Origin: a virus
Taxonomy: Duplodnaviria > Heunggongvirae > Uroviricota > Caudoviricetes
Virus record (IMG/VR): IMGVR_UViG_2711768059_000002
DNA length: 7,085 nt
Reading direction: 5' to 3' (one strand)
Shown here: positions 3,056 through 6,000 of the stretch, one piece after another
How positions within the stretch are numbered: position 1 is the stretch's first letter
Layout of the letters: every line of letters begins with the position of its first letter
The notes under the pieces: generated by a model
What the model was told of the DNA's origin: nothing
Seen by the model: the letters and a program-made list of their open reading frames with translations, nothing else
The model's database searches: none
Program-made: the position numbers and the translations under genes

Positions 3056-6000
3056 TCAGCTGATACTGATACCTGCTGTGGATTTCTTCATCACCACAAC
3101 CAGCAGATCGCTGATACTGGTTGTTGGTGTCCAGTCATTCGCTCCTGATGAAGATACGGTGAATGTCAGTGTCAGCGTCCCCTGTCCGGCAGGCATATCT
3201 ATAACTGAGGAAAATACGCCCTGAACATCCGTCGTGGACTGATTAAAAATCTCCTGACCATTGCGGGTCACTCTTAACCGGCAGGTTGAATACCAGTATG
3301 ACTGTTGGTTATTACTGTTGAAATTCTCATGCTTACCACCGCGGAATAATACTGGCGGTATCATGACCTGCCGGTCAAATTTCTGATCATCACTGATTCT
3401 TACCGTGATGGTGCCACTGGCATAACTGTTCGTGCGGGGGAAAGACTTGCTGACCGTTTTGACAATATCGCCTTCAATCTGATTGGCTGACAGTTTCCCC
3501 TTAATCTGACAGTTCTCATTAATCGTGACATTGTTGAGCGTCCCTGAATTTGCATTCACATTACCGCTGATATCCGCATTTTTAGCGGTCAGCTTTCCGT
3601 CCGGTGTCAGGGAAAATGCCGGCGGATTTCCACCGCTGGTAATGGTGGGAGCCGTCAGGCGTTTCAGGAACACGTCGTTCATGAATATCTGGTTGCCCTG
3701 CGCCACAAACATCGGCGTTTCATTCCCGTTTGCCGGGTCAATAAACGCGATACGATTGGCGGCAACCAGAAACTGGCTCAGTTTGCCTTCCTCTGTATCC
3801 TCCATGCTGAGGCCAAGCCCCGCGACATAATGCTTACCGTCTTCGGTCTGCTCAATTTTGACGCCCCACATGGCATTCCATTTATCACTGGCGTCTTTCC
3901 ACTCTTTCGAAAACTCATCCAGTCTGCTGGCGTTATCCTCCGTCAGGTCGACTTTTTCCAGCAGCTCTTTACCGAGATGGGATTCGGTTATCTGGCCTTT
4001 GAAAAAATCCAGGTAACCTTCCGCATCATCGCTCGCCCGACCGACGGCTTCCACGAATGCCGATTTGCCAACGGTGTTCACACTGCGGATATAAAAGTAA
4101 TAATCATGGCCCGGTTTGATATTGATACTGGCGGCTATCCAGTACAGCGCCGTACCAAGATAGCGGGCTGTGGTTTCAACCTGCCTGATATCCGCAATCC
4201 GTTTTTCCGAGAACCAGAACTCAAACTGTACCGTCGGATCATAAACCGCAAGATGCGGCGTGGCGGTTATCTGAAAATAGCCCGGCGTCAGCTCAATCCG
4301 CGACGGCGCTGCCGGTGCGGCAATCCGGAACGATACCGATGCCGGATCGCCCTGCTGCCCCCAGGCATTTGCCGCCCGGACTGTCAGCCTGTAGTTCCCT
4401 GGCGCCAGTTGCCTGAAGCGGTATGTTGTTTCCGTCGTCCGGGCCGTGCTGACCAGCCGCTCACTGCCGTCATCCGCTGCCACGGTCAGGCGAAGCATAA
4501 AGCTCACCCCCTTCACCACCTTCGGCGTATCCCAGCGCGCCAGCACCTGGTATTCCCCGCTGTCTGCGGTGACTTCTGCGGTCAGATGCTGCACTGCTGG
4601 CGGCGTGACACCATTCACCGTGCCGCTCTGGTCACCGTCAAAGTGCGCCCCGTTATCCACGATGGCTTCTTTCTCCGGTACATGCTGCACGGCGGTGATG
4701 GCATACGTGCCGTCATCGTTCTCACGGATACTCACGCAGCGGAACAGGCGCTGGCGCAGCGTCGGCAGCTTCAGCCCCCATACGCTGTATCCGGCAACGC
4801 CGTCAGGAACACGGCTCACTTTTACCTTCACGCCGTCGGTGACGGACTGGACCTCCACGCTGACCGGATTGCCACTTCCGTCAACCAGGCTTATCAGCGT
4901 GGTACCGGAGGATGGCAGCGTGATTTCACGGTCGAGCGTCAGCGTCCGGGTCTGGCTGTTCACCGCCAGCACGCGCCCGCCGGTGCTGATCCCCGCATAG
5001 TCATCATCGCAGATTTCAATAACATCACCCGGCACATGGCGAAGCCCTTCGGCACCCACGCTGAAATCCACGGTCTGCGTCTCCAGCAGCTCCGTTTTAA
5101 TCAGCCACAACCCGGCGCGGTGTGCCTGCCCCCGGCTGGTACAGCCAAAGGCATCCATCTTCGTGACGTTACGACCGTAACGGAGAATGGCCTGCGTGTC
5201 CTCCACAAGCTCTGTCGCCGTCTCCCAGCCGTTATCCGGGTCAATCCAGTTCACCTCAACGGCATTATGGCGGTCCTTCAGGGCGCTGAAGCTGTAGCGG
5301 AACGGCGCGCCATCATCCGGCATCACCACATTACTGCGGTTATAGGTCCACACCTTATCCGACCGTCGGTCCTGCACGAACGTCAGCGTCTGCCCGTTCC
5401 ATACCGGCATACAGCGCATCGCCGAGCAGAAATCACTGAGAACATCCCACGCCTTACGCTGTGTGGTCAGCCAGGCATTACAGGTGATGCGCGGCTCCGT
5501 GCCGCCAAAACCGTCCGGCACCGACTGGTCGCAATACTGGCCGATGACATACAGCGCCCATTTGTCCACATCCGCCGCACCAAGACGTTTCCCCATGCCG
5601 TAGCGCGGATGGGTCAGCATATCCCACAGACACCAGGCCATGTTGTTGCTGTATGCCGGCTTAAACGTTCCGTCCCAGATACCGCTGTATTGCCGCGTCT
5701 GCGGGTTATAGTTCGACGGCACCTGCAGAATGCGCCCGCGCAGATGATAATTACGGCTCACCTGCTGGCTGCCGAACTGCTCCGAGTCCACCTGCACACC
5801 GACCAGTGCCGTGTTCGGGTAGCACTGTTTCACATCGATGATTTCGGTGTATGACGACCAGAGCGTTTTGTTCTGCAGCTGGTCTGTGGTGCTGTCCGGC
5901 GTCATCCTGCGCATCCGGATACTGAACGGGCGCGGCGGCAGGTTATCCACCACCACCGAGGCCAGATACTGTGAAGTGGTTTTACCCTTAATGGTGATGT

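Follow-up and report, generated by a model that had tools for sequence, protein, structure and literature searches.

The question that this locus raises is whether the J protein of a lambda-like phage tail ends here in a receptor-binding module different from that of lambda and, if so, which receptor that module would serve. The window, i.e. the whole stretch of DNA analysed (7,085 bp), comprises the tail-tip genes I, J, lom and stf of an E. coli prophage of lambda/mEp460 type, in which a lambda-type J body carries, from about codon 961 on, a naturally circulating specificity cassette. The initial annotation had read the C-terminus of J as a swapped receptor module, arguing from a step in GC content and from a parallel exchange in Stf; the swapped module held up, while the GC argument and the coordinated exchange with Stf did not.

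The tail-tip region and its J gene

The real genes of the window, I, J, lom and stf, are all located on the minus strand, and their arrangement agrees with the order K-I-J-lom-stf on one strand, which is the same in lambda and in mEp460. The latter is the closest phage across the whole window, with 96.8% identity at 94% coverage. The features on which the analysis is built are the following, the basis of each being given in brackets.

6515..7063, minus strand: tail assembly protein I (Pfam Lambda_tail_I, gene order)
3056..6454, minus strand: J, tip attachment or central tail fibre protein, 1132 aa, intact (ORF, translation, Pfam)
3576..6454, minus strand: conserved lambda-like J body, residues 1 to ~960 (protein and DNA identity)
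3056..3575, minus strand: exchanged specificity block, comprising the last part of the fibre prism and the receptor-binding domain (RBD), residues ~961-1132 (identity collapse, A8 match)
3074..3437, minus strand: core of the cassette, without a DNA match in mEp460 (blastn)
3059..3433, minus strand: Ig-like C-terminal receptor-binding domain, Pfam PF12421 (Ig_GpJ_C), residues 1008-1132 (E = 3.1e-36)
3019..3038, minus strand: terminator-like hairpin past J (matches a rho-independent terminator annotated in mEp460)
2390..2989, minus strand: lom, Ail/Lom outer membrane protein, non-lambda allele (Pfam Ail_Lom, E = 4e-121)
2342..2363, minus strand: terminator-like hairpin past lom (mEp460 terminator annotated at the matching place)
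1..2325, minus strand: stf, side tail fibre, partial, 775 codons, open to position 1 (N-terminal part, 1484-2325, lambda-like; distal part not)

J is a lambda-type tip attachment protein with the full domain series, from FNIII-A through the Phage-tail_3 hub, two Ig/FNIII domains and Phage_Tail_Tip to the C-terminal Ig RBD. In fact, six Pfam families (FNIII-A_GpJ, Phage-tail_3, Ig_J, Ig_J_second, Phage_Tail_Tip and Ig_GpJ_C) exceeded their curated cut-offs, with E-values of 1e-33 to 1e-43, and the last of them, PF12421, scored 124.9 bits over residues 1008-1132 against a gathering threshold of 26.2. Length (1132 aa), domain order and gene neighbourhood are the same as those of lambda gpJ. The downstream Lom protein shares 94 of its 207 residues with lambda Lom.

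The breakpoint in J and the composition of the block

When the protein was aligned to lambda J (NC_001416), identity amounted to 90-100% in each of the 40-residue bins as far as residue 960 and then fell sharply, the successive bins giving 0.72, 0.42, 0.31, 0.45 and 0.48. This bore out the earlier statement that the C-terminus does not resemble that of lambda J, and the C-terminal peptide quoted on that occasion is indeed present in the translation. The indels of the alignment fall near lambda residues 1012 and 1107. At the DNA level, the J body is 87-99% identical to lambda and 90-100% identical to mEp460 per 90-nt bin; in 30-nt bins, both phages run along with the window at 0.87-1.00 down to position ~3575, past which they depart from it together, synonymous sites included, and identity ranges between 0.33 and 0.80. 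The DNA breakpoint is thus placed at ~3575, about codon 961. By blastn, lambda homology was limited to 3498-7085 and 1484-2517, so that relative to lambda the divergent stretch extends through most of lom, and mEp460 covered 3438-7085 (95.8%) and 1-3073 (97.4%) only. Therefore, the core at 3074-3437 alone is unmatched in mEp460 and, since both flanks are homologous there, the difference from the nearest relative is a clean cassette of ~365-500 nt.

This position has a precedent. A study of 1,207 homologues found that J residues 960-1132, termed the specificity region, have a phylogeny separate from the rest of J, with indels near 1012 and 1107 marking lineages (Maddamsetti et al. 2018, PMC6646904). 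The breakpoint found here falls where that region begins, although the study gives the general pattern and assigns no receptor to the type of allele present in the window. The same work describes the specificity region as fast-evolving, with mutation hotspots at 1012 and 1107 (PMC6646904), and alignable framework residues are kept among J alleles, both of which would fit a C-terminus altered in situ by point mutations that accumulated rapidly under diversifying selection, with no exchange of a cassette. The distribution of the alleles makes this highly improbable. The last 154 residues were found in 44 phage records at 95-99% identity, their carriers including Stx1a and Stx2a converting phages, 2H10, Turner, Chlobot, PhiR30_1, PhiR70_1, YYZ-2008 and CP-1639, and ~1,500 of 5,426 complete E. 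coli genomes contain the stretch 3074-3500 of the cassette with a DNA identity of at least 95%. In a spread sample, the other J alleles fell into separate classes, at ~80-82%, 78%, 54-60%, 42-45% (mEp460, cdtI and others) and 42.7% (lambda, DE3 and HK629), so that between them and the ~97-99% class of the window there are gaps and not a continuum. Moreover, the same cassette sits on divergent J bodies, as in phi330, where a block 97-99% identical in protein is joined to a body of 77% DNA identity, and the near-identical body of mEp460 carries, conversely, an RBD of 43% identity. The boundary itself is abrupt, being resolved within ~30 nt, with 33-80% identity per 30-nt bin inside the block against 93-100% in the flanks. 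A scan for the RBD among GTDB species-representative genomes returned only distant relatives, the best at 62% in Escherichia ruysiae, a result which says nothing about spread outside E. coli.

A junction of this kind could also be produced by the assembly, in a strain with several prophages, if the J body and the part downstream of it (RBD, lom and stf) had come from different prophages. The window is the entire contig CXYE01000067.1 of a draft assembly (GCA_001269025.1), and the median number of J-like places per E. coli genome is 3, circumstances in which such chimeras could arise. Nevertheless, in 142 of the 5,426 complete genomes 80% or more of the window is found at a single place, and the best 15 genomes listed hold 100% of it as a single piece at 97.1-97.6% identity; one of these 15, strain W2-5, also has the exact 45-mer of the D1107 variant discussed below. 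An artefact is accordingly scarcely credible. The single-piece copies in complete genomes, the divergent bodies and the separated allele classes led both in-place divergence and an assembly chimera to be rejected in favour of a genuine exchanged cassette. As a separate observation, gene L is frameshifted in a homologous prophage of E. coli W2-5.

The exchange had initially been argued from base composition, on hand counts of 60-nt samples. On recount, all seven were right within 2 points:

3061-3120: 46.7% (hand count 47)
3241-3300: 45.0% (hand count 45)
3301-3360: 41.7% (hand count 40)
3481-3540: 43.3% (hand count 43)
3541-3600: 45.0% (hand count 45)
3601-3660: 63.3% (hand count 65)
5401-5460: 55.0% (hand count 55)

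Over the two parts of the gene as a whole, GC content is 46.6% in 3056-3600 and 58.2% in 3601-6454. The step near 3600 that these counts suggested is overstated, the sample used as comparator (3601-3660, 63%) being a local peak. At the breakpoint itself, the change is from 51.8% (3576-4280) to 46.5% (3056-3575), with z = 1.8 (1.81), while the best single change point within J lies at ~4280, where GC passes from 60.2% to 49.5% with z = 6.0, and this change is also present in the J genes of lambda and mEp460. Since the main step of the gene is common to lambda and mEp460, and the step at ~3575 is marginal, GC is weak evidence and was rejected as proof of a swap. The exchanged block does lie below the equivalent block of lambda (46.5% vs 54.4%, z = 2.5), as does its GC at third codon positions (GC3) over RBD codons 986-1132 (0.53 here, 0.63 in lambda); the composition of the block fits a foreign origin without proving one.

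Identity of the cassette and its predicted porin

A sequence search of the PDB gave as its best match the chain "A8 gpJ 713" (entries 9wca and 9wcb), identical in 191 of the last 194 residues (98%), with lambda gpJ (8xcj, 8iyk) far behind. When E. coli OmpC was used as the query, three chains of outer membrane porin C, a trimer, turned up in 9wcb as well, and since both molecules share one entry this is presumably a J-OmpC complex; a literature search found no paper describing 9wca or 9wcb. [quoted passage not shown] The lambda chimera delivers DNA via OmpC without LamB, reaching ~90% of cells that carry the OmpC of MG1655 or EDL933, and a second chimera, 1A2, differs from A8 in the OmpC variants accepted (PMC11338833). 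The A8 gpJ DNA given in the supplement of that work is 94.8% identical to the window over the whole block, a figure resting on a machine-read text that contains errors, and aligns to lambda upstream of its junction only. In A8 the engineered junction falls at ~codon 969, no more than ~25 nt away from the natural breakpoint found here. The two proteins differ in that A8 is a laboratory fusion onto Ur-lambda J and the J of the window a natural form in a prophage, and at three residues, N965, V1077 and D1107 in the window being S, A and N in A8.

A second, natural relative is the Stx2a siphophage vB_EcoS_phi330, whose RBD is identical in 143 of 147 residues (97%), the differences, in window numbering, being S1009, T1010, A1077 and N1107. 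The J of phi330 is annotated with 1042 aa and its body is the 77% identical one mentioned above; over window positions 1904-3843, comprising RBD, lom and the start of stf, its DNA is 91% identical. This phage does not lyse the Keio ompC deletion strain, on which plaques return when ompC is supplied from Plac-ompC (PMC12502783). For the PhiR phages (PV340xxx) the literature yielded nothing relevant, and a paper on Chi sites (PMC12315714) contained no receptor data for these phages.

The RBD of the window is therefore more than 95% identical, across its whole length, to both the A8 chain and phi330 J. It differs from the LamB-binding allele of lambda gpJ (8iyk, 8xcj), to which identity over residues 986-1132 is 41% with indels in the loops. 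It is likewise distinct from the allele of phage 434 (record OL657226, located via its repressor sequence), with 41% identity to the RBD of 434 and 43% to that of mEp460; these two J proteins, both of 1137 aa, have RBDs 95% identical to each other and belong to a different class. Taken together, the comparison supports the assignment of this J to the OmpC-using class of A8 and phi330, with OmpC and not LamB as its predicted receptor. The proposal of a receptor different from the LamB of lambda is thus upheld, since in the relatives of this module the use of OmpC has been shown both experimentally and structurally. The cassette is nothing new in kind: as a J allele it is already known, has been solved structurally and occurs very commonly.

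It could be objected that the dependence of these relatives on OmpC comes from their side tail fibres and not from J. Ur-lambda Stf does bind OmpC (PMC11338833), and in the phi330 paper J and Stf were not genetically separated (PMC12502783). However, A8 was tested with a lambda-P2 Stf chimera, which binds LPS, on MG1655 without lamB and ompC and with ompC alleles supplied from a plasmid (PMC11338833). Furthermore, the gpJ fragment alone shares entry 9wcb with OmpC, and in phi330 the annotation of stf consists of three short fragments, so that almost no credence can be given to this explanation.

The consequence of the exchange depends on the reference chosen. Relative to lambda, the evidence supports a change of receptor from LamB to OmpC. 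Relative to mEp460, the nearest relative, the outcome would be another. Phage 434 uses OmpC (PMC11101478), so that the 434-type and A8-type RBDs each have a tested OmpC user, and a swap between them is not necessarily a change of receptor protein. On the mEp460 backbone the likely effect, by analogy with A8 and 1A2, would be a change in the OmpC surface or in the OmpC alleles recognised.

Within the A8/phi330 class, the form found in the window deserves separate consideration on account of two hairpins predicted to contact the porin:

3299..3328, minus strand: ten-residue hairpin, residues 1043-1052, an insertion relative to lambda (identical to E953-S962 of phi330)
3125..3142, minus strand: hairpin ANDWTP, residues 1105-1110, with the D1107 codon GAC at 3134-3136 (ANNWTP in A8 and phi330)

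[quoted passage not shown] As far as these model-derived contacts go, the barrel hairpin of the window is identical to that of A8 and phi330, and the rim hairpin differs by its aspartate. D1107 aligns with D1107 of lambda, and lambda 1107 is one of two positions changed in every laboratory-evolved lambda that uses OmpF (PMC6646904). The exact 45-mer with the D codon was found in 58 of the 5,426 complete E. coli genomes.

These observations lend themselves to the reading that the allele is of A8 type, with D1107 and V1077 shifting its specificity towards narrower or different OmpC alleles, or towards another porin such as OmpF. It would draw on the place of D1107 in the predicted rim-contact hairpin, on the need for changes at lambda 1107 in the OmpF switch, on the minority status of the D variant, and on the fact that A8 and 1A2 already differ in the OmpC variants they accept (PMC11338833). 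Set against this, only 2 of the ~147 RBD residues differ from A8, the change from D to N is conservative and the barrel-inserting hairpin is identical, and we regard such a shift as unlikely. Binding of OmpC by this exact variant, with V1077 and D1107, is what we infer from its relatives. It is only tentatively, and with rather low confidence, that the minority form can be put forward as a natural specificity variant of the A8-type RBD; if it were one, it could alter the OmpC alleles or the porin that are usable, and would be a natural counterpart of the host-range mutations of laboratory-evolved lambda.

Side tail fibre, proposed origin and meaning

The same pattern had been claimed for Stf, and rightly so: its N-terminal ~280 codons are lambda-like, within the lambda homology at 1484-2517 (87% in DNA), and its distal part has no lambda homology, with GC contents of 56% in 1201-2331 and 44% in 1-1200. 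The distal part (1-1450) is 98.5% identical to the stf of mEp460; it also matches, at ~80-85%, lateral tail fibres from three phages that we take to be T5-like, namely FritzHoffmann, slur09 and Salmonella phage SP01. The further suggestion that J and Stf had been exchanged in a coordinated manner was not supported, because the J RBD and the distal Stf assort independently. In fact, mEp460 combines this distal Stf with a 434-type J RBD, and phages with the RBD of the window (2H10, Turner, the Stx1a phages and phi330) are without the distal Stf, only PhiR70_1 among the RBD-sharing phages having even part of it. In the complete E. coli genomes, the full distal Stf is present in 95 and the RBD allele in ~1,500.

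As regards its origin, the cassette would most likely have been acquired by homologous recombination, with an upstream crossover in the conserved fibre-prism sequence at ~3575 and a downstream crossover in the conserved last codons of J and the J-lom spacer at ~3073. With the cassette in place, the central fibre would consist of three J chains, whose C-terminal Ig-like domains would push loops into a trimeric porin, which for the A8-type allele should be OmpC and not LamB. Binding would make the base of the RBD spread, a movement which would pass up the beta-prism and the helical shaft until the tail tip opens and DNA is ejected. Loop insertion and tail-tip opening are taken from the cryo-EM of lambda with LamB (PMC11101478), and by analogy this triggering mechanism probably carries over to OmpC. 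The window covers 7,085 bp of the prophage, which is presumably functional. As a whole, a swapped-in OmpC cassette of A8/phi330 type on a lambda-type J is very probably the right explanation of the locus.

The case is a textbook one of modular host-range evolution in lambdoid phages, and underlines that a J specificity cassette can be located by a reader of the raw sequence. More than a quarter of the complete E. coli genomes contain the allele class concerned, and the A8/phi330 class has already been used to engineer DNA delivery particles active in the gut.

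Composition of J and extent of the divergence from lambda

The largest change in GC content inside the tail-tip gene J lies at window position ~4280 (J codon ~725), where it drops from 60% to 50% near the boundary of the two Ig-like domains of the protein. This change point is common to the J genes of the window, of lambda and of mEp460, the nearest phage backbone, with 91–99% identity across it. The opposite strand of J contains a long reading frame:

3830-5854, plus strand: antisense ORF of 674 codons over J

We read this ORF as a probable by-product of the high GC content of the J coding sequence, not as a gene.

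[quoted passage not shown] Likewise, only 94 of 207 residues of the window Lom (2390-2989) are identical to those of lambda Lom.

Contig limits and prophage state

The following records hold the sequence and a homologous prophage:

1-7085: contig CXYE01000067.1 in full (7,085 bp; draft assembly GCA_001269025.1)
NZ_CP032989, 2502393-2521477: homologous prophage of E. coli W2-5 (locus L014)

Both contig ends are probably places where prophage repeats broke the assembly. In the W2-5 prophage, the minor tail gene L is frameshifted and the tail fibre assembly gene is reduced to a remnant and, therefore, some carriers at least are defective prophages. The W2-5 prophage adjoins a truncated ydfJ, which we take to be the Qin prophage site of K-12.

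Receptor-binding domains of J and the use of OmpC

Two J codons represent substitutions compared with A8, an OmpC-using gpJ chimera with a near-identical RBD, and with the OmpC-dependent Stx2a phage phi330:

3134-3136: codon of D1107
3224-3226: codon of V1077

D1107 lies within a hairpin predicted to contact OmpC, and the exact 45-mer bearing it was found in only 58 of the 5,426 complete E. coli genomes.

Phage 434 is the classical OmpC user. Its J RBD (L015, 4320-4919) is 95% identical to that of mEp460 (L003, 4946-5545) and so, on the basis of RBD type, mEp460 may use OmpC too. OmpC appears to be the target of at least three distinct natural classes of J RBD, namely the 434, A8 and 1A2 types, 1A2 being a second gpJ chimera.

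Relationships of the distal side tail fibre

1-1450: distal part of the side tail fibre gene stf; identity to mEp460 stf, 98.5%

In the full-length homologue from E. coli, the annotation places an S74 endopeptidase (chaperone) domain at the C-terminus. The DNA of the distal part is also ~80–85% identical to that of the lateral tail fibres in three phages that we take to be T5-like: FritzHoffmann, slur09 and Salmonella phage SP01. This likeness suggests an exchange of fibre modules between temperate phages of the lambdoid group and T5-like phages, which are virulent.
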